This document shows, in pieces, positions 3,496 through 30,049 of a stretch of DNA of 39,720 nt. Both the position numbers and the translations under genes were made by a program. This DNA comes from a phage. Below the pieces are notes generated by a model. The model saw only the letters and a program-made list of their open reading frames with translations. It had not been told where the DNA came from and did no database searches. Where the stretch lies: sequence record PZ618370.1. One strand, given 5' to 3'. Within the stretch, counting starts at the first letter, position 1. Each line of letters begins with the position of its first letter.

Positions 3496-3518
3496 ACTTA
3501 ACTATCACTATAGGACTC
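3496..3518 (+). promoter_or_regulatory. phage RNAP promoter (ACTTAACTATCACTATA-GGACT), upstream of the RNAP gene
   Basis: 15/17 match to the promoter family consensus; +1 G at 3513; initiating GGA rather than GGGA. Confidence 0.6.
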
Positions 3519-3587: not shown

Positions 3588-6269
3588 ATGAGCGTCATCT
3601 CTATTGACAAACACGACTTCTCTGACGTGTCGAATGCCATTGAGCCATTTAACCTGCTGGCTGACCACTACGGGCAAGACCTTGCAGTCAAGCAGCTTCA
3701 GCTTGAGCATGAGGCATACACTGAAGGCGAGCGACGTTTCATCAAGAACCTTGAGCGCCAGACTGAGCGCGGGGAACTGGCAGACAATCAGGTCGCCAAG
3801 CCTTTGATGCAGACTCTGGTCCCTAAGATTGCGCAAGCCGTCAAGGAGTGGCACGAAGGAAAAGACGGGAAGCTGTCAACCTCTCGCCCAAGCGTAGCGT
3901 TTACCATGCTGAGCACTGATGAGAAGGCTGTCAAAGACCGCTCTCTGCTCATCTCCTGTGGGTCTGCTGCGGTTATCATACTGAAGGTCATCCTCTCCAA
4001 GCTGGTCAAGCCTGAAGGGATACCGATTACACCGATGGCCTCAGCGATAGGCCGCACACTTGAAGATGAAATCCGCTTCGGTCGCATTCGTGACAAGGAG
4101 CGGGAGCACTTCAAGAAGGCGATAGCTGAGAACCTGAACAAGCGAGCCGGGGCATCCTACAAGAAAGCCTACATGCAAGCGGTTGAAACCTCCATGCTGG
4201 AGCAGGGTCAACTGGAAGATGCGTGGGGAAATTGGAGTCCTACCGAGGCGGTACACGTTGGCATCAAGATGCTTGAGATTGTCATCCAGTCTACACAACT
4301 TGTCGAGCTTAAGCGTTATGGTGCTGGCAATGCATCGGCTGACGTTGAGATGGTCCACCTGTCAGACTTCTGGGTAAAGAAGATGGCACAACGTGGATTC
4401 AGCCTCGCGGGTATCGCGCCAGTATATCAACCTTGCGTAGTACCACCTAAGCCGTGGACTGGTGTCGTGGGTGGTGGGTATTGGGCCAAAGGTCGCAGAC
4501 CGTTGCCGCTGATTCGATTAGGGTCTAAGTCTGCGGTGGCACGTTACGAAGACGTGTACATGCCTGAAGTCTACGACGCTGTGAACATCATTCAGAATAC
4601 ACCTTGGAAAGTGAACAAGAAGGTTCTGGACGTGGTGAACATGGTCGAGAAGCTGAACAACACACCTATTAAAGACATCCCGCAAATGGAACCACTGAAG
4701 CCTGAGGACTATGCAGGTGAGACTGAAGAGGAACTCAAGGCATGGAAGAAAGCTGCTGCTGGTATCTATCGTCGCGAGAAGGCCCGAAAGTCACGCAGAT
4801 TGTCACTGAGCTTTATCGTTAACCAAGCGAACAAGTTTTCTCAGTTTAAGGCCATCTGGTTTCCGTACAACATGGATTGGCGAGGTCGCGTCTACGCTGT
4901 ACCGATGTTCAACCCTCAGGGTAACGACATGCAAAAAGGCCTCCTGACTCTTGCGGTCGGCAAGCCTATTGGTTCCGATGGCTTCAAATGGCTGAAGGTA
5001 CACGGTGCAAACTGTGCGGGTGTAGATAAAGTAACCTTCGAGGAGCGCATTAAGTGGGTGGAAGACAACCATGACAACATCATGGCTACCGCTAAAGCAC
5101 CGATGGATAGCATTGAGTGGTGGGGCAAGTTAGGCTCCCCGTTCTGCTTCCTTGCGTTCTGCTTCGAGTATGCTGGCGTAATGCATCACGGATTGTCTTA
5201 CTCATGCTCGCTGCCGATAGCGTTCGATGGGTCATGCTCTGGGATTCAGCACTTCAGCGCGATGCTTCGTGACCACATCGGTGGACATGCAGTAAACCTG
5301 ACGCCTTCCGGTAAGGTCCAAGACATCTACCGCATCGTGTCTGACCGCATTGAGGAGGAACTTAAAGTCCTGCTGGTTAACGGTACGGACAACGAGATGG
5401 TGACTCAAGAGGACAAGAAAACAGGTGAGATTACCGAGCGTCTTAAGCTGGGGACACGAGAGCTTGCGCGCCAGTGGCTTACCTATGGTATGTCACGAGA
5501 GGTCACTAAGCGTTCGGTCATGACTCTGGCATACGGGTCGAAAGAGTATGGATTCGCAGACCAAGTGTACGAGGATATCGTGATGCCAGCGATTGACTCA
5601 GGGTCTGGCGCTATGTTCACCGAGCCAAGCCAAGCATCTCGCTTCATGGCTAAGATGATTTGGGAAGCTGTTAGTGTGACCGTAGTTGCTGCGGTTGATG
5701 CGATGAAGTGGCTTCAAGGTGCTGCCAAGCTGCTGGCTGCTGAAGTGAGTGACAAGAACACAGGCGAAATCCTGAAGCCGTGCCTTCCTGTACATTGGGT
5801 CACACCCGATGGTTTCCCGGTCTGGCAGGAATACCGAAAGAAAGATACCACTCGTCTGAACCTGATGTTCTTAGGGTCATTCAACCTTCAGCCTACCGTC
5901 AACAGAGGCACGAAGAAAGAGTTGGACAAGCACAAGCAGGAGTCAGGCATTAGCCCGAACTTCGTCCACTCACAAGATGGTAGCCACCTCCGCAAGACTG
6001 TAGTCCACACGCACCGCAAGTATGGCGTGATGTCCTTCGCAGTGATTCACGATAGCTTCGGGACCATCCCGGCTGACGCTGAGTATCTGTTCCGTGGCGT
6101 CCGTGAGACGATGGTAGAGACCTACCGCGACAACGATGTGCTGCTTGACTTCTACGAGCAGTTTGAATACCAGCTTCACGAGAGCCAGCGCGACAAGTTG
6201 CCTGAGCTTCCGAAGAAAGGTAAACTGAATATCGAAGACATCTTGTCTTCAGACTTTGCATTTGCTTAA
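3588..6269 (+). CDS. 1: single-subunit DNA-directed RNA polymerase (T7 gp1 family, 893 aa)
   Basis: Full-length collinear similarity to T7 RNAP as recalled (SREVTKRSVMTLAYGSKE, HWVTPDGFPVWQEY, NFVHSQDGSHLRKTVV, IHDSFGTIPADA, C-terminal FAFA). Confidence 0.97.
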   Translation: MSVISIDKHDFSDVSNAIEPFNLLADHYGQDLAVKQLQLEHEAYTEGERRFIKNLERQTERGELADNQVAKPLMQTLVPKIAQAVKEWHEGKDGKLSTSRPSVAFTMLSTDEKAVKDRSLLISCGSAAVIILKVILSKLVKPEGIPITPMASAIGRTLEDEIRFGRIRDKEREHFKKAIAENLNKRAGASYKKAYMQAVETSMLEQGQLEDAWGNWSPTEAVHVGIKMLEIVIQSTQLVELKRYGAGNASADVEMVHLSDFWVKKMAQRGFSLAGIAPVYQPCVVPPKPWTGVVGGGYWAKGRRPLPLIRLGSKSAVARYEDVYMPEVYDAVNIIQNTPWKVNKKVLDVVNMVEKLNNTPIKDIPQMEPLKPEDYAGETEEELKAWKKAAAGIYRREKARKSRRLSLSFIVNQANKFSQFKAIWFPYNMDWRGRVYAVPMFNPQGNDMQKGLLTLAVGKPIGSDGFKWLKVHGANCAGVDKVTFEERIKWVEDNHDNIMATAKAPMDSIEWWGKLGSPFCFLAFCFEYAGVMHHGLSYSCSLPIAFDGSCSGIQHFSAMLRDHIGGHAVNLTPSGKVQDIYRIVSDRIEEELKVLLVNGTDNEMVTQEDKKTGEITERLKLGTRELARQWLTYGMSREVTKRSVMTLAYGSKEYGFADQVYEDIVMPAIDSGSGAMFTEPSQASRFMAKMIWEAVSVTVVAAVDAMKWLQGAAKLLAAEVSDKNTGEILKPCLPVHWVTPDGFPVWQEYRKKDTTRLNLMFLGSFNLQPTVNRGTKKELDKHKQESGISPNFVHSQDGSHLRKTVVHTHRKYGVMSFAVIHDSFGTIPADAEYLFRGVRETMVETYRDNDVLLDFYEQFEYQLHESQRDKLPELPKKGKLNIEDILSSDFAFA

Positions 6270-6281
6270 CAGGAGATAGTT

Positions 6282-6482
6282 ATGAAATTTGCACACAAGC
6301 AGACTGGCGTTAATGGTGGGACTCAAATCGTGACCGTAACAGAACACAACGGGAAGGGTCTGGTGAAGACCACGGTCATCCCCACCGAGATGTCAAAGCA
6401 GCTTAACGTCCCGTTCAAGTGGCTGGTTAAGCAGGTTGAGCAGACACACGAGCAAGCTCTTAAAGAGGCGGCAACCAAATGA
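6282..6482 (+). CDS. hypothetical protein (66 aa)
   Basis: ORF with SD AGGAG; lies between gene 1 and the phi1.1 promoter where T7 has no gene (T3-like phages carry extra genes here). Confidence 0.5.
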   Translation: MKFAHKQTGVNGGTQIVTVTEHNGKGLVKTTVIPTEMSKQLNVPFKWLVKQVEQTHEQALKEAATK

Positions 6483-6556
6483 CAGACCTACAGTTACTGG
6501 CCCTGTGGCTGGGAGCACTAGCAGTATTCACTCTAATCCAACGCAGAAGAGGTTAA
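6479..6556 (+). CDS. possible 25-aa hydrophobic peptide
   Basis: ATG overlaps the preceding stop (ATGA); hand-translated MTDLQLLALWLGALAVFTLIQRRRG; very short, speculative. Confidence 0.2.
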   Translation: MTDLQLLALWLGALAVFTLIQRRRG

Positions 6557-6560
6557 CCCT

Positions 6561-7040
6561 ATGTTTGGTAAGTCAAAACTCAAAGCACAAATCAAAGAGT
6601 TGAGCATGAAGGCGGCATACTTGGAGCGAGTAGTAATAGTCATGGATAAGGACAACGAGAGGCTGAAGGTTAAACTTGCTGAATCAGAGCGTAAGCGCCT
6701 AACACCACCAGCGGCTGTATTTAGCAAGCGTATGGTAGGCATCAAGTTCAAGGCACTGTTCAACGGGATGTACCAACCGACTGAGTTCAAGACTGGACCG
6801 GGTAACTGCGGTAAGAACGTTAAGCACTTCACAACATCGAAGACTGAGCGCACTATTACCATTCACCAGCACCACGTACACGGGTCTCAGAAAGACTTTG
6901 AGTATCGACTGAGCGACATCGACGGTCGAATCCAGTATGACTACGAGCTGGTTAAGGTCTATGGTGAGGAGGCTGAACAGGAACGTATAAACCAAGACTA
7001 CCGCAACAGACAGCGCTTACACCCTAAACTATCACTATAG
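6561..7040 (+). CDS. hypothetical protein (159 aa, N-terminal coiled-coil-like segment, His-rich centre)
   Basis: ORF with SD GAGG; stop codon TAG lies inside the phi1.1 promoter core; no confident homology. Confidence 0.55.
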   Translation: MFGKSKLKAQIKELSMKAAYLERVVIVMDKDNERLKVKLAESERKRLTPPAAVFSKRMVGIKFKALFNGMYQPTEFKTGPGNCGKNVKHFTTSKTERTITIHQHHVHGSQKDFEYRLSDIDGRIQYDYELVKVYGEEAEQERINQDYRNRQRLHPKLSL

Positions 7041-7045
7041 GATTA
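7023..7045 (+). promoter_or_regulatory. phage RNAP promoter (phi1.1-like)
   Basis: CCTAAACTATCACTATA-GGATT; +1 G at 7040. Confidence 0.8.
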
Positions 7046-7087
7046 GACTCAAGGTCATGACTAAAGTCGTGGCCTTCATGATTAACC
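7041..7087 (+). promoter_or_regulatory. RNase III-type processing hairpin (R1.1-like)
   Basis: Conserved element TAGACTCAAGGTCAT...GTGGCCTTCATGATTA; 5' AAGGTCAT can pair with 3' GTGGCCTT (including G-U pairs); same element before genes 5 and 18.5. Confidence 0.5.
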
Positions 7088-7116
7088 CTAACGTAAACTA
7101 CTGGAGATTCAACCAT

Positions 7117-7296
7117 ATGTATCAGAACACTATCAACTTCGAGCGCATCCGTGAACGTCAGAAGACTGAAGGTTATATTCCGAAGGGACGCAAGCTGAAC
7201 AAGACCAAGCGTGGCGGTGGTGTCAAGGGAGCTTTCCGTAATGCTGAGGGTAAAGACTCTCTGGTAAACCAAGAGAAGTATTTCGTAGGAGCGTAA
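7117..7296 (+). CDS. gp1.1-like small basic protein
   Basis: GRKLNKTKR motif as in T7 gp1.1 as recalled. The track ORF starts at 7057 inside the RNase III-like hairpin; the in-frame ATG at 7117 after GGAG is more plausible. Start uncertain. Confidence 0.45.
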   Translation: MYQNTINFERIRERQKTEGYIPKGRKLNKTKRGGGVKGAFRNAEGKDSLVNQEKYFVGA

Positions 7297-7298
7297 AC

Positions 7299-7586
7299 AT
7301 GAGCATGTTCTCAAGAGCGCATAGCGGCAACCTGAACACTCTTCGTACAGCCATCCACAACTGGCAGACCGAGACGGACTACAATGCAGAGGTCAGCACT
7401 TGGTTTGACCAAGTGATGCACAGGACTTGTATCAAAGCTGTAATAGTCCACGTTCACACACGAGAGGTCCTCATTGAGAAGGACTTCACGGAGTACCCGA
7501 ATATCCACGACGAAGATGTGCAGACCGTAGCGGTTGCCACTTGGTTTAACAAACAGTTCAACGACTACACTGGTCGATTCCTTTAA
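7299..7586 (+). CDS. gp1.2-like protein (host dGTPase inhibitor family by position)
   Basis: 95-aa ORF directly upstream of ligase, SD AGGAG; limited recalled similarity to T7 gp1.2 (SGNL, HDEDV). Confidence 0.55.
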   Translation: MSMFSRAHSGNLNTLRTAIHNWQTETDYNAEVSTWFDQVMHRTCIKAVIVHVHTREVLIEKDFTEYPNIHDEDVQTVAVATWFNKQFNDYTGRFL

Positions 7587-7603
7587 TTCTGGAGACATTA
7601 ACG

Positions 7604-8689
7604 ATGATAACTATTAAAACTAACCCGCACCGCGCTGTAGATTACTCTGAGTCTGGCGTTAAGAAGGCTCTGGAAGCTGCCGGGTCGCTGGAAGCTGAAG
7701 TGAAGTACGATGGTGTCCGGTTGAATCTTCTGGTCTTCCCTACTGGTGAGACTCAATGGTTGAGTCGTGAGTCTAAACCTCTCCCAGCTCTTGAGTGGCT
7801 GTCAGTCCTTACCAACATCGACAACATCGTTGATGACCAGCAAAAAGCTAGCGACTGGCGGTGGTTCCTTAAGCAGGCGGGCTACGAAGGCATGGGCCTG
7901 ATGATTGATGGTGAGGTCATGGTTCCTGCAACCGACTTCAACACTTCCTCAGGTCTAGTCCGTACCATGTGGTCAGACACTAAGAACTACGCTTGGAATG
8001 GCAACCCAGATGCTGACATCGACACCAAGAAGAAGCATAAGGTCCCTTTCCATCTGGCAACCGACCACATCCGCGTGGTTGTCTACGGTATCGTTGACCT
8101 TAACGTCATCAACGACCCGAAAGCCGAAGGTCCTATCCATAGCGTCACACGCCTGAAGGCCGAAGCTATCGTCCCTCTCCTCCAGAAATACTTCCCGGAA
8201 ATCGACTGGGTTCTGTCTGAGTCACACACGGTCTATGACCTTGAGTCGCTCAACTCCCTGTACGAAGAGAAGCGTCTGGAAGGACACGAGGGTCTGGTAG
8301 TCAAGGACCCACTGGGTAAATACAAGCGTGGCAAGAAGTCAGGAATGTGGAAGATGAAGCCTGAGGAGACCATCGACGGGACCGTATGTGGCCTCGTGTG
8401 GGGGACTCCTGGTAAGGCCAACGAAGGCAAGGTCATTGGCTTTGAGGTACTGCTGGAGGACGGCATGGTAGTGAATGCGTGCGGACTGACTGAGGAGCAG
8501 AAGGATGAGTTCACCGCTTCCGTTCTAAACTGGCGTAAGGGGTTATGCTCAAGCACTATTTATGGAAACCCGTTTGCGGGTAATCAGGTGGAAGTCCTAT
8601 TCATGGAGCGCATCCCTGATGGCTCCCTTCGTCATCCCAGCTTCAAGTGCTGGCGTGGAACGGAAGACAATCCAACCGTTAAGAGCTAA
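7604..8689 (+). CDS. 1.3: ATP-dependent DNA ligase
   Basis: 361 aa; IKTNP N-terminus, adenylation-site KYDGVR, EGHEGLVVKDP, KSGMWKMKPE, DGSLRHPSF all match T7 ligase as recalled. Confidence 0.95.
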   Translation: MITIKTNPHRAVDYSESGVKKALEAAGSLEAEVKYDGVRLNLLVFPTGETQWLSRESKPLPALEWLSVLTNIDNIVDDQQKASDWRWFLKQAGYEGMGLMIDGEVMVPATDFNTSSGLVRTMWSDTKNYAWNGNPDADIDTKKKHKVPFHLATDHIRVVVYGIVDLNVINDPKAEGPIHSVTRLKAEAIVPLLQKYFPEIDWVLSESHTVYDLESLNSLYEEKRLEGHEGLVVKDPLGKYKRGKKSGMWKMKPEETIDGTVCGLVWGTPGKANEGKVIGFEVLLEDGMVVNACGLTEEQKDEFTASVLNWRKGLCSSTIYGNPFAGNQVEVLFMERIPDGSLRHPSFKCWRGTEDNPTVKS

Positions 8690-8698
8690 CTAAACGGC

Positions 8699-8731
8699 AA
8701 CCCAGTGGTCTTCGGACTGCTGGGTTTCTTT
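8699..8731 (+). terminator. intrinsic terminator (T7 TE-like) after ligase
   Basis: 12-bp stem AACCCAGTGGTC/GACTGCTGGGTT with UUCG tetraloop, followed by a T-rich tract TCTTTGCGTTTGG. Confidence 0.75.
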
Positions 8732-8753
8732 GCGTTTGGGGATCCAGCCTGAC

Positions 8754-8776
8754 CCTAATTTATCACTATAGGACAA
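8754..8776 (+). promoter_or_regulatory. phage RNAP promoter, divergent (CCTAATTTATCACTATA-GGACA)
   Basis: Two mismatches to consensus at -11/-10; +1 G at 8771. Confidence 0.6.
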
Positions 8777-8804
8777 CCATAACTTCGACCTAAGGAGGCC
8801 GACC

Positions 8805-9065
8805 ATGTTTAAGAACTTAATGTTCAACCGTTATTCCAATACCTTCCACCTGTCCAACAACCCGTTCGCTTGCATTAAGCGTAACGAGAAGCTGGGCTAC
8901 TTCGGGAAGGCCGTTAAGCTGTCACCTACAGTCTACGCTCTTATTACTCCCGGCAAAGCTGAAGAGGCTCGCCAGAAGCGTGAGACCAACGTACCTGTGG
9001 TCTACACTAAGTGGCCTCGAGTTCGTCTGTTCGTTGAGTTCGTGAAGGAGGTGGTCAATGATTAA
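8805..9065 (+). CDS. hypothetical protein (gene 1.6 position, 86 aa)
   Basis: ORF with strong SD AAGGAGG; positional assignment only. Confidence 0.55.
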   Translation: MFKNLMFNRYSNTFHLSNNPFACIKRNEKLGYFGKAVKLSPTVYALITPGKAEEARQKRETNVPVVYTKWPRVRLFVEFVKEVVND

Positions 9066-27766: not shown

Positions 27767-30049
27767 ATGGCTAGTAATATTGAATCAGCTCTGGCTAATC
27801 GGACTATGGGTCGTGGCAGAGCTCCGGGTAAAACTATCGCCGTCAACTATCAAGCAGCCAGCGTTCAGGCTCCGACTGGTGACTCCGGTCTGGCTCGTGC
27901 ATTAACCAACTTCGTTGAGTCTGGGACTGGATTGTACAAGCAGTTCAAAGACGAGGAGAAGACACGGGCCGACGAGCGGTCTAACGAGATTATCCGTAAG
28001 CTGACACCTCAGCAAAGACGTGAGGCTATCCAGAACGGCACACTGCTGTATCAGGACGACCCTTACGCTATGGAAGCACTTCGAGTCAAGACTGGACGTA
28101 ACGCTGCCTTTGCGGTGGATGACGAGATTAACGTTAAGATTCAGAATGGTGAGTTCCGCACACGTCAGGAAATGGAAGAATATCGCCACCAGCGACTTCA
28201 AGACGCAGCTAAGTCCTATGCTGAAGAGGCTGGTATTAACCCTACCGATGAGTTCTTCCAGCGAGGGTTCAACGATAACATCACAGACCGCAACATCGCT
28301 ATCTATGGGTCCTTCAATAAGTATTTCAGTAAGCAGTCTGAAGAGACAGCAATGTTGAATACTCGTATTGAGATGAACTCATTCCTGAACGATGGAGACC
28401 TGATGCGTTCACCTGAGTCAGGTAAGACCTTCATGGCCTACCTTCGTGATGGACTGACTACAGCTGCTATCCCTTCGGACCAGCGAGCACGGGAGGTAAT
28501 TACCCAGACGGTCCGTGACGCAATCCAGAAGTCTGGTGGCTCAAACTTCCTACAGCAAGTACGAGGCGAGCGAATCACACTTAACGGTGTGGATGCTACA
28601 GTCGAAGAGATTGTAGGACCTGACGTCTTCAATGCTGCTATGGTAGAGGCTCAAGGCACTGAGTACAAACTGGTGGCTAAATATCAGGAAGACTTAGCGC
28701 TTGGAGTTCAGTCTGCTATTCTTCAGGATGACCCAACCATCGGTCTGGCCCAGATTCAGAAGCTCAAGGAGCAGAACAACCTGCTTCAACCGGGTGAAGA
28801 ACTCACACCTCAGCGTCAGATGCTTATTAATGCCGAAGCCAGCCTACTGGAAGCGGTCAAGCGTAAGTCTGCTGAACAGGCAAAAGAGAACACTAAGTTA
28901 ATCCAGACTCAGAACAAGCAACTGGTCATCGACCAAGTGTATCAGCGACGTCTGGCTGGGGACAACGTGTCAACCAACTATGAGGACCTTCCTGTCTCTG
29001 AGGCTACAGGAGAGTTCAAACGTTCAGACATGAACAACTATGCGTCTGCCAAGCTACAGCAGATTGACCAGATGGACATCCCTGAGGCAGCTAAGGACGC
29101 TCAGAAGGTGGCATTGTTAAGAGCTGACACTAACAACGGTCCGTTCCGTAATGCCTTCCAGACGCTGACTCAGGACGCTGCTGGTGAGTGGCAAGCTGCT
29201 GTCATCCGTGGACAGTACGACCCAGACAAGATGCAACGCTTCGAGTCTCTTCGTCGTGCCTACACTCAGGACCCTTCAAGTTTCGCTGCTCTGTATCCTG
29301 ACCAAGCTCAGTTGTTCTCTACGTTCGACCAGATGGACAAGATGGGTCTGGACCCTCAGACGATGATTGAAGCTGATAAGCAAGCTGCAAGTCAAAGCCG
29401 TGAGATGCGCATGGAGTCAGACAAGGCGTGGCAGGAGTTGAAGAACGACTCCAAGAACACCCAGTTGTCTCGTCTCCCAACGTCTCTTGACTCAAGTGCT
29501 CGTAAGGTCTGGGACTCATGGTACTATCGTACAGGTAACGCTGACGCTGCAACTCAGCAGACTCAACGCTGGCTGAATGAAAATACCGTAACGTTCCAGT
29601 CTGAAGGCTCTGACGGTAAGTCCATCGGCATGGTGTCAAAGCACCAGCTTATGGTTGGGGATAACCCAGAGTCGTGGCAGGTTGGTCGAGACATTATCGA
29701 CACAGCTCGTCAGCAGCTCATTAAGGCCAACCCTTGGGTAGTGAACTCTCAGTTGTCAGTTGTTGAGCAGAACGGCTCTATCTTCCTCCAAGACGCTACA
29801 GGGACTATTCGTATTCGCTACGATAAAGAACTTGTAGGTAAACTCTACCGTGAACAACAGCAGAAGGCACAAGATGCCGCATACGCTCAGGCAGAACGTG
29901 ACGCTAACAAGCGAGCGCGTATCGTCGGGACTAAAGCTGCTGGTGACAAACGTCGAGCTGACCGAGAGGCCACCATCGAGAAGCGCGGAGGGATGTACAA
30001 TGACGTCTCATTGGAGGGTATCGCAAACGTACTAATCGGTAAGGAGTAA
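27767..30049 (+). CDS. 15: internal virion protein C (gp15)
   Basis: 760 aa; DERSNEIIRKLTPQQRREAIQNGTLLYQDDPYAMEALRVKTGRNAAF nearly identical to T7 gp15 as recalled; many further collinear blocks. Confidence 0.92.
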   Translation: MASNIESALANRTMGRGRAPGKTIAVNYQAASVQAPTGDSGLARALTNFVESGTGLYKQFKDEEKTRADERSNEIIRKLTPQQRREAIQNGTLLYQDDPYAMEALRVKTGRNAAFAVDDEINVKIQNGEFRTRQEMEEYRHQRLQDAAKSYAEEAGINPTDEFFQRGFNDNITDRNIAIYGSFNKYFSKQSEETAMLNTRIEMNSFLNDGDLMRSPESGKTFMAYLRDGLTTAAIPSDQRAREVITQTVRDAIQKSGGSNFLQQVRGERITLNGVDATVEEIVGPDVFNAAMVEAQGTEYKLVAKYQEDLALGVQSAILQDDPTIGLAQIQKLKEQNNLLQPGEELTPQRQMLINAEASLLEAVKRKSAEQAKENTKLIQTQNKQLVIDQVYQRRLAGDNVSTNYEDLPVSEATGEFKRSDMNNYASAKLQQIDQMDIPEAAKDAQKVALLRADTNNGPFRNAFQTLTQDAAGEWQAAVIRGQYDPDKMQRFESLRRAYTQDPSSFAALYPDQAQLFSTFDQMDKMGLDPQTMIEADKQAASQSREMRMESDKAWQELKNDSKNTQLSRLPTSLDSSARKVWDSWYYRTGNADAATQQTQRWLNENTVTFQSEGSDGKSIGMVSKHQLMVGDNPESWQVGRDIIDTARQQLIKANPWVVNSQLSVVEQNGSIFLQDATGTIRIRYDKELVGKLYREQQQKAQDAAYAQAERDANKRARIVGTKAAGDKRRADREATIEKRGGMYNDVSLEGIANVLIGKE

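Follow-up and report, generated by a model that had tools for sequence, protein, structure and literature searches.

Phage T7 has several early host-takeover proteins that are not essential: gp0.4 acts against FtsZ, gp0.6 acts against MreB, and gp1.2 acts against dGTPase. T7 is not known to have any gene between gene 1, which encodes the RNA polymerase (RNAP), and the phi1.1A/B promoters. In T3-group phages, this position does hold a gene, which encodes gp1.05; an earlier note on the DNA described below had mentioned extra T3-group genes here. Members of the T3 gene 1.05 family occupy the slot between genes 1 and 1.1 in phiYeO3-12, phiSG-JL2, Erwinia phage L1, and EcoDS1. Here we analyze the same slot in a phage sequence of 39,720 nucleotides (record PZ618370.1; "the window" is this whole stretch), which belongs to the genus Kayfunavirus (the K1F/EcoDS1 group of the T7-like Studiervirinae). 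Directly 3' of its gene 1, and before the phi1.1 promoter, are three tightly packed open reading frames (ORFs):

6282-6482, plus strand: ORF A, 66 amino acids; matches phrog_8082 (E = 3.5e-41, residues 1-66 of 66).

6479-6556, plus strand: ORF B, 25 amino acids, MTDLQLLALWLGALAVFTLIQRRRG; its ATG overlaps the TGA of ORF A (ATGA).

6561-7040, plus strand: ORF C, 159 amino acids, gp1.05 family; matches Pfam PF25755 (5e-24) and phrog_8103 (9e-56).

We argue that these are three real early genes and that gp1.05, the product of ORF C, is probably a non-enzymatic and dispensable accessory adaptor that acts near the inner membrane. Relative to T7, the genes are extra. The earlier note, which was made from the sequence without database searches, placed all three ORFs correctly. 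It counted two extra ORFs and a "possible" hydrophobic peptide of 25 amino acids; the peptide turns out to be a real gene, given its dN/dS (see below) and its being intact in 39 of 39 loci, and hence there are three extra genes, not two. The note could not assign these ORFs, but homology searches place the 159-amino-acid protein in the PF25755/gp1.05 family and the 66-amino-acid protein in phrog_8082. Overall, ORFs A to C are ordinary accessory early genes. Two of them, A and C, belong to families that are already catalogued (phrog_8082 and PF25755/phrog_8103) but uncharacterised, and the other is an overlooked micro-gene.

Judging from substitution patterns, all three ORFs are protein-coding genes under purifying selection. 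We compared the window to the homologous interval of 16 related genomes and computed the ratio of nonsynonymous to synonymous substitution rates (dN/dS) by the Nei-Gojobori method. This ratio was 0.03-0.33 for ORF A, 0.15-0.28 for ORF C, and, in comparisons with a synonymous rate (dS) of about 1, 0.10-0.15 for ORF B. Shine-Dalgarno-like motifs are present at a normal distance from each start codon: AGGAG at 6271-6275 (ORF A), AAGAGG at 6463-6468 (ORF B), and AAGAGG at 6547-6552 (ORF C). We also considered a 55-amino-acid ORF in an alternative frame (6436-6603), and rejected it because substitutions there follow an anti-coding pattern.

ORF C matches PF25755, which is named "Enterobacteria phage T3 gene 1.05 protein," with 84.5 bits (the cut-off is 27); the match spans residues 58-128 and 72 of the 73 model positions. 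The homologue in EcoDS1 is annotated as gp1.05. The location of ORF C between gene 1 and gene 1.1 is the slot behind the name 1.05, although the slot is not strictly defining: the gene follows gene 1 in T3-like phages, Erwinia phage L1, Pantoea phages, and Kayfunavirus, but it is found before gene 1 in Pseudomonas phages of the genus Pifdecavirus and at another early-region site in Melnykvirinae. On a Sphingobium-associated contig, a member of the family lies between the polymerase and exonuclease genes. To describe the family, we used a profile that includes ORF C in an exhaustive search of 1.84 billion representatives, which yielded 304 clusters (at 50% identity) with E <= 0.001. All of the genomic contexts that we examined were the early or replication region of a T7-like or other phage, and PF25755 was the sole match for all 146 of the family representatives that we examined. 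A few family members of 182-188 amino acids (P0271, P0273, and P0274) match the PF25755 profile twice, in stretches that are separate from each other.

The gene in the window differs in several ways from its best-known relatives. T3-type and Erwinia/Pantoea genes 1.05 have their own promoter, phi1.05, directly upstream, whereas ORF C lacks one and has ORF B directly in front of it. T3-type gp1.05 is short, with about 90 amino acids as reported for phage AP5, as compared to 159 for ORF C. In phiSG-JL2, the protein additionally has a membrane helix and a helical region, while gp1.05 from the window has a helical stalk, no membrane helix, and an additional C-terminal helix. The two genes are alike in that the 3' end of each overlaps the phi1.1 promoter.

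An AlphaFold model of ORF C (predicted local distance difference test score, or pLDDT, of 92) has two helices, at residues 2-47 and 135-153, on either side of a beta domain:

6564-6701, plus strand: N-terminal helix of gp1.05, residues 2-47; from the secondary structure of the model (pLDDT of about 97).

6717-6959, plus strand: six-stranded beta domain of gp1.05, residues 53-133; contains the Pfam match (58-128) and a Gly-rich loop, G79-x-G81-x-C83-G84.

The N terminus had been described as coiled-coil-like from the sequence, and the model agrees: it predicts, with confidence, one continuous helix, along which hydrophobic residues recur with the heptad pattern of a coiled coil. The a/d positions would be L7, I11, L14, A18, L21, V25, M28, N32, L35, and L39, with Asn32 at an "a" position. 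This helix is hypervariable among Kayfunaviruses (21 relatives), except for its first 14 or so residues.

The beta domain, when modeled by itself, is again all-beta with six strands (pLDDT of 92.6). Across the 146 representatives, G79, C83, Q103, and G122 are invariant; F76, G81, G84, V87, K111, F113, Y115, and R123 show conservation of 90% or more, and all of these are present in ORF C. As modeled, the domain has no solved structural counterpart. Sequence searches of PDB with single sequences and with profiles did not find any relative of gp1.05; a fold search with the full-length model gave matches that were dominated by the long helix and told us nothing; and a fold search of BFVD with the beta domain found only uncharacterised proteins of T7-like phages. 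We considered whether the domain might be a P-loop NTPase, as the consensus GLGPCGKT resembles a Walker A motif (GxxxxGK[ST]). However, position 85 varies among K, L, E, and R, position 86 varies among N, T, E, Y, and V, and the domain is all-beta. Several records label the protein as "microtubule-binding protein," which no search supports; we read this label as an artefact of coiled-coil similarity.

Most long members of the family seem to be anchored in a membrane. Of the 66 representatives with at least 140 amino acids, 46 have a membrane helix at residues 1-22 or so, followed by about 70 residues that are helical or coiled-coil-like and then by the domain. The gp1.05 proteins of phiSG-JL2 and of Pantoea phage Bubbas are examples. 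The family is widespread, and its usual architecture is membrane-anchored.

The peptide encoded by ORF B is also predicted to be in the inner membrane. Its sequence contains a single hydrophobic stretch that is long enough to span a membrane (mean Kyte-Doolittle hydropathy of 2.24 over the 17 residues from L4), with charged flanks: Asp3 before it and RRR after it. By the positive-inside rule, the peptide would cross the membrane once, with its N terminus out and its C terminus in. Bacteria and phages have small membrane proteins with a single pass, such as AcrZ, MgtS, and type I toxin peptides, and ORF B resembles these in its size, its one hydrophobic helix, and its basic C-terminal tail; this is an analogy only.

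ORF B was intact, and always had 25 codons, in each of the 39 related loci that we read in GenBank phages and IMG/VR. Across these loci, the stop codon varies (TAA, TAG, or TGA) at a fixed position, the overlap with the stop codon of ORF A (ATGA) is present in all but one, and hydrophobic residues are substituted for hydrophobic residues. Among the 16 distinct sequences, there are 10, 6, and 16 variable sites at codon positions 1, 2, and 3, respectively, and many of the changes at position 1 are synonymous changes of Leu codons. As for the other frames over ORF B, one carries stop codons and the third shows an anti-coding pattern.

Within the interval that separates gene 1 from gene 1.1, ORF B is the constant element and, by these alignments, the best conserved one. 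Its DNA segment was found in 220 phage records, 97 of them with at least 95% identity. A 1.2-kb interval around the three ORFs matched 221 phage records, almost all from Kayfunavirus, but none of these reached 95% identity over the whole interval (the closest, Escherichia phage TM1, is 92% identical). ORF B is retained in K1F, LM33_P1, PE3-1, Vec13, and CR44b, which do not have gp1.05; in these phages, the phi1.1 promoter follows 8-9 nucleotides after its stop codon. It is also present in a metagenomic sister lineage that lacks ORF A. This lineage has no close relative in GenBank, and its RNAP is 73% identical to that of the window. Directly between its gene 1 and its gp1.05 gene, it encodes MTYLTMFALWMGALAAFTLLQTRRG, which is identical to ORF B at 17 of 25 positions (68%), while its gp1.05 is just 31% identical to the window's. 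Thus, ORF A and ORF C are each dispensable somewhere, and ORF B is the element that stays.

Despite this conservation, ORF B is annotated in just one of the annotated relatives that we examined: IMM-002, where it is labeled as "DUF2842." That record is heavily over-annotated, and we did not find a match to any Pfam family even at E <= 1, so we reject the label. More broadly, we found no sequence relationship for ORF B in Pfam, NCBIfam, or PHROGs, and a scan of metagenomes with a degenerate pattern identified only further Kayfunaviruses. About 220 sequenced Kayfunaviruses, including many candidates for phage therapy, therefore share a conserved gene of 78 nucleotides that is nearly always unannotated.

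The gp1.05 gene seems to come and go as a cassette. The window differs from K1F, LM33_P1, and CR44b by a clean indel of 465 bp (approximately 6557-7021), and PE3-1 and Vec13 have the same junction. The ends of the cassette are marked by a microhomology:

6556-6561, plus strand: left ACCCTA microhomology of the gp1.05 cassette.

7021-7026, plus strand: right ACCCTA microhomology of the gp1.05 cassette; from the alignment with LM33_P1, CR44b, and K1F and the sequences of the junctions.

Genomes without gp1.05 have a single ACCCTA, or ACCTA, which is shorter by 1 nucleotide (K1F and others), that leads straight into the promoter. Using tblastn, we found relatives of gp1.05 in a total of 138 records, as compared to about 220 for ORF A and for ORF B. 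About 86 of the 138 records are from Kayfunavirus, as compared to about 221 with ORFs A and B, which implies that roughly 40% of the genus has the gene; both the 86 and the 40% are estimates from an evenly spaced sample, not counts. Within the genus, gp1.05 is as diverged as ORF A (dS above 1), which argues for an old presence with repeated loss rather than a recent insertion. In two metagenomic Kayfunavirus contigs, the gp1.05 gene is split into two frames (L050, 1333-1796; L054, minus strand, 2267-2742). Both breaks are in or just after the N-terminal helix, and they could reflect decay of the gene to a pseudogene or errors in assembly.

The pairwise distances of ORFs A, B, and C are poorly correlated with each other (0.01, 0.30, and 0.28). 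Therefore, the modules recombine independently, which makes the interval a mosaic. The presence or absence of gp1.05 within one genus provides natural isogenic comparisons for finding its role: for example, the host range of phages with and without the cassette could be compared, or their response to anti-phage defenses.

The signals around the three genes are:

3588-6269, plus strand: gene 1, single-subunit RNAP, 893 amino acids; from the ORF list, and annotated as RNA polymerase in relatives.

3496-3518, plus strand: phage-RNAP promoter upstream of gene 1, with the core ACTATCACTATAGG at 3501-3514; exact match to the core.

7023-7045, plus strand: phi1.1-type phage promoter, with the core at 7028-7041; exact match to ACTATCACTATAGG.

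8699-8726, plus strand: TE-like intrinsic terminator, 3' of the ligase gene; from a terminator scan, a strong hairpin with a 12-bp stem followed by a run of T.

The promoter at 3501 is the nearest phage promoter upstream of ORFs A to C, and we did not find a match to the window's promoter core between the sites at 3501 and 7028. Nor did we find any promoter or terminator that separates these ORFs from gene 1, and the terminator comes only at 8699-8726, where EcoDS1 annotates TE at the equivalent place. Therefore, we infer from the layout that ORFs A to C are in the early transcription unit with gene 1, which ends at the TE-like terminator. This fits the earlier note's expectation that they are transcribed early, along with the RNAP.

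Taken together, the favored account is as follows. By the layout, transcription by the host RNAP would run from the left-end promoters as far as the TE terminator and would cover gene 1 and ORFs A to C; the phage RNAP would initiate at the 3501 promoter and would also cover the three ORFs. Translation of ORF B is probably coupled to that of ORF A via the ATGA overlap. Based on the model and the family, gp1.05 would be a non-enzymatic adaptor in which a parallel coiled-coil stalk carries a small beta-barrel head, and its binding surface would comprise the Gly-rich Cys loop (G79, G81, C83, and G84) along with Q103, K111, Y115, and R123. Because most of the long homologues have an N-terminal membrane anchor, the head probably works at the inner membrane, on its cytoplasmic face. 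And because closely related phages do without the gene, gp1.05 is more plausibly a dispensable accessory for host takeover or counter-defense than a protein with a core function in replication. The T7 early host-takeover proteins gp0.4, gp0.6, and gp1.2 suggest an analogy of genomic role: ORFs A to C are likewise small, early, variable, and dispensable, and they lie between gene 0.3 and TE. However, they are not homologous to any of these three proteins.

Several points weigh against this account. First, gp1.05 from the window does not itself have a membrane helix. Second, Erwinia phage L1 and pEa_SNUABM_57 have long forms of gp1.05 that lack the helix, that lie behind a phage promoter, and that are not accompanied by ORF B, so localization to the membrane is not universal. 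Third, the invariant Cys and the invariant Gln could mean that the domain carries out chemistry instead of binding. Finally, our literature search turned up no functional data on the products of ORFs A, B, or C, and no experiments on any gp1.05 family member: "gp1.05" or "gene 1.05" occurs only in genome tables, PF25755 and phrog_8103 gave no literature match, and a preprint that describes a screen of accessory genes does not mention gene 1.05. The earlier note had said that clear homology to a characterized 1.05-type protein of known function would count against its view of these ORFs as extra genes that could not be assigned. The homology is indeed clear, but the literature search found no functional characterization.

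This is an ordinary block of accessory early genes, and it does not overturn our understanding of the biology of the T7 group. The new points are modest: a membrane gene of 25 amino acids that is present across the genus, the boundaries of the gp1.05 cassette, and the mostly membrane-anchored architecture of the gp1.05 family.

The alternative that survives best is that a membrane-anchored gp1.05 is here split between ORF B and ORF C, with the 25-amino-acid peptide as a detached anchor that recruits the coiled-coil stalk to the inner membrane. We regard this as possible, but doubtful. The parts do correspond: a membrane helix is fused to the helical region and the domain in the 46 of 66 long family members, and the predicted topology, with basic residues after the helix, is identical in the fused and the split forms. 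Kayfunavirus gp1.05 does not have the helix, yet in every genome that carries gp1.05, ORF B ends 4-5 nucleotides before its start. The sister lineage without ORF A keeps the arrangement as well, with its 68%-identical ORF B directly before a 31%-identical gp1.05. On the other hand, ORF B is intact in the five named phages that lack gp1.05, and therefore it must have a role of its own. The distances of ORF B and gp1.05 are only weakly correlated (r = 0.30, or 0.27 if just the N-terminal helix is considered), and long forms of gp1.05 that lack the helix exist without ORF B upstream. (Similarity between the membrane helices is uninformative.) If the two ORFs are a split protein, then Kayfunaviruses encode in two pieces a membrane-tethered early effector that other T7-like phages make as a single chain, and in the phages without gp1.05, ORF B would keep a second role at the inner membrane.

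We also considered whether gp1.05, instead of being an accessory adaptor, might act in starting the replication of phage DNA, since its gene lies where T7-group phages have their primary origin region. The primary origin of T7 is at the phi1.1 promoters, and in phiSG-JL2 a putative replication origin is annotated between phi1.05 and gene 1.05. The gene's location between the DNA polymerase and exonuclease genes on the Sphingobium-associated contig would also fit, and the weak fold neighbors of the domain include small barrels that bind nucleic acids (Hfq and WYL domains). Still, a role in replication is unlikely. Well over half of the genus (about 60%, which is an estimate), including K1F, lacks the gene, while the promoter region is otherwise intact. 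Furthermore, other members of the family precede gene 1 or lie at different early-region sites.

The domain contains a cluster of His residues, which the earlier note had seen as a hint of metal binding:

6864-6881, plus strand: His cluster, H102-Q-H-H-V-H107; lineage-specific, according to the alignments.

The His-rich sequence HQHHVHG is present at residues 102-108, as the note had described. H102, H104, and H105 are retained within the Kayfunavirus subgroup, and the same domain includes the invariant Cys83, all of which might suggest a metal site. Outside of the subgroup, however, the His positions are occupied by T, K, I, R, S, or other residues, H107 is Asp in most of the relatives, and Q103 is the only residue of the cluster that is invariant. 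T3-like, Erwinia, Yersinia, and Pseudomonas members replace the His residues; where the window has HQHHVHG, relatives have TQRHTDG, KQTHTDH, IQSHDDG, or TQRTEKG. In the model, the His residues lie along a beta strand and would point to alternating faces, and gp1.05 does not match any metal-binding family in Pfam or NCBIfam. We think it very unlikely that gp1.05 binds metal via this cluster, and the hint does not hold up.

Another idea is that ORF B is not translated and that its conservation reflects a signal in the DNA or RNA, such as an element upstream of the promoter or at the origin, a processing site, or the ribosome-binding site of gp1.05. The nucleotides of ORF B are more conserved than their neighbors (97 of 220 records at 95% identity or more, versus none for the 1.2-kb interval). 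Also, the 3' end of ORF B carries the AAGAGG that gp1.05 uses, and in the phages without gp1.05 it abuts the promoter. But AAGAGG is still conserved where no gene comes after it, and the constraint is of the kind expected for a protein: the variable sites are concentrated at third codon positions, dN/dS is low even where dS is about 1, the length is fixed, the stop codon turns over at one position, and hydrophobic residues replace each other. A GAGG/GGAG motif that lies 10-12 nucleotides upstream of ORF B also persists even though the C terminus of ORF A, which it overlaps, differs. The ORF B region does not have a stable RNA fold (z = +1.77), and there is no Rfam match in the interval or anywhere in 6000-9000. 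It is quite improbable that ORF B is only a signal.

Finally, we give almost no credence to programmed frameshifting that fuses A to B, or B to C, into a single protein: the ORFs do overlap or nearly abut, and a fusion of B to C would recreate the helix, helical region, and domain of the relatives, but the spacer between B and C is 4 nucleotides in most genomes and 5 in the rest, which means that the two frames keep no constant relation, a TAA (6534-6536) closes the gp1.05 frame just upstream of its start in the window, and the A/B junction varies in sequence and does not contain a slippery heptamer.

Turning to the first of the three genes, ORF A is, from the sequence comparisons, a Kayfunavirus-specific ORFan. 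Its relatives comprise 221 phage records and 156 clusters at 90% identity, which are mostly contigs of about 40 kb. Searches of Pfam, NCBIfam, and PDB, including a profile search, did not find a match to ORF A, and no relatives of phrog_8082 were found outside the genus. The counterpart of ORF A is labeled as "gp1.1" in K1F and EcoDS1 and as "1.05" in CR44b; the K1F and CR44b proteins belong to phrog_8082, share the position after gene 1, and are of the same size class (66-71 amino acids). K1F's label is used despite there being no relation to T7 gp1.1 (PF08200). We considered and rejected the possibility that ORF A is T7 gp1.1: ORF A does not match PF08200 at E <= 1, and the PF08200 match (5e-10) belongs to the downstream ORF at 7057-7296 (or 7117-7296; see below). 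Misleading labels seem to be common in this interval, and include "gp1.1," "1.05," "microtubule-binding protein," and "DUF2842."

Some relatives have a further ORF of 76 amino acids between gene 1 and ORF A, namely EcoDS1 (extract L001, 1586-1816) and LM33_P1 (extract L024, 1260-1490); the window does not. Therefore, the interval contains at least two independent presence/absence cassettes. In the LM33_P1 record, the RNAP gene is annotated as two coding sequences (in extract L024, one ending at 530 and the other at 558-1244), which suggests a frameshift or a sequencing error.

The promoter core ACTATCACTATAGG has 14 nucleotides and occurs exactly at 8 sites in the window, with 3 further sites that have 1-2 mismatches. 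The consensus promoter at 3496-3518 is about 70 nucleotides upstream of the RNAP gene, and it would let the polymerase boost the expression of its own gene and of ORFs A to C; T7 is not known to have a phage promoter there. As for the phi1.1 promoter, its core overlaps the last codons of ORF C and the TAG stop codon (7038-7040). By comparison with T7, transcription would start at G7040. A promoter is annotated at the position equivalent to 7028 in both EcoDS1 and CR44b.

About 10 nucleotides past the putative phi1.1 start, at 7051-7076, is an 11-bp hairpin (GGUCAUGACU...AGUCGUGGCC). The 41-nucleotide segment that contains it has a fold z score of -3.45, and the hairpin is retained in K1F, LM33_P1, and CR44b. 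It could be a stabilizing stem at the 5' end of the transcript or an RNase III-type site. The ORF at 7057-7296 (79 amino acids) is a mechanical call and is probably too long. Relatives annotate a gp1.1 homologue of 59 amino acids (180 nucleotides), for which the start codon here would be ATG 7117. The PHROG match is confined to residues 21-79, and that to Pfam gp1.1 falls inside of it, at residues 26-62.

We considered whether TTAACCCT might be the remnant of a T3-type promoter in front of ORF C, but nothing there matches the T3 consensus with 3 or fewer mismatches. The 9-mer TTAACCCTA is the 5' part of the T3 promoter consensus, although no full T3-type promoter is present there. It occurs in the window at 6553-6561, 7082-7090, and 28236-28244: these are three copies, where 0.21 would be expected by chance, and the first two bracket the gp1.05 gene and the phi1.1 promoter.

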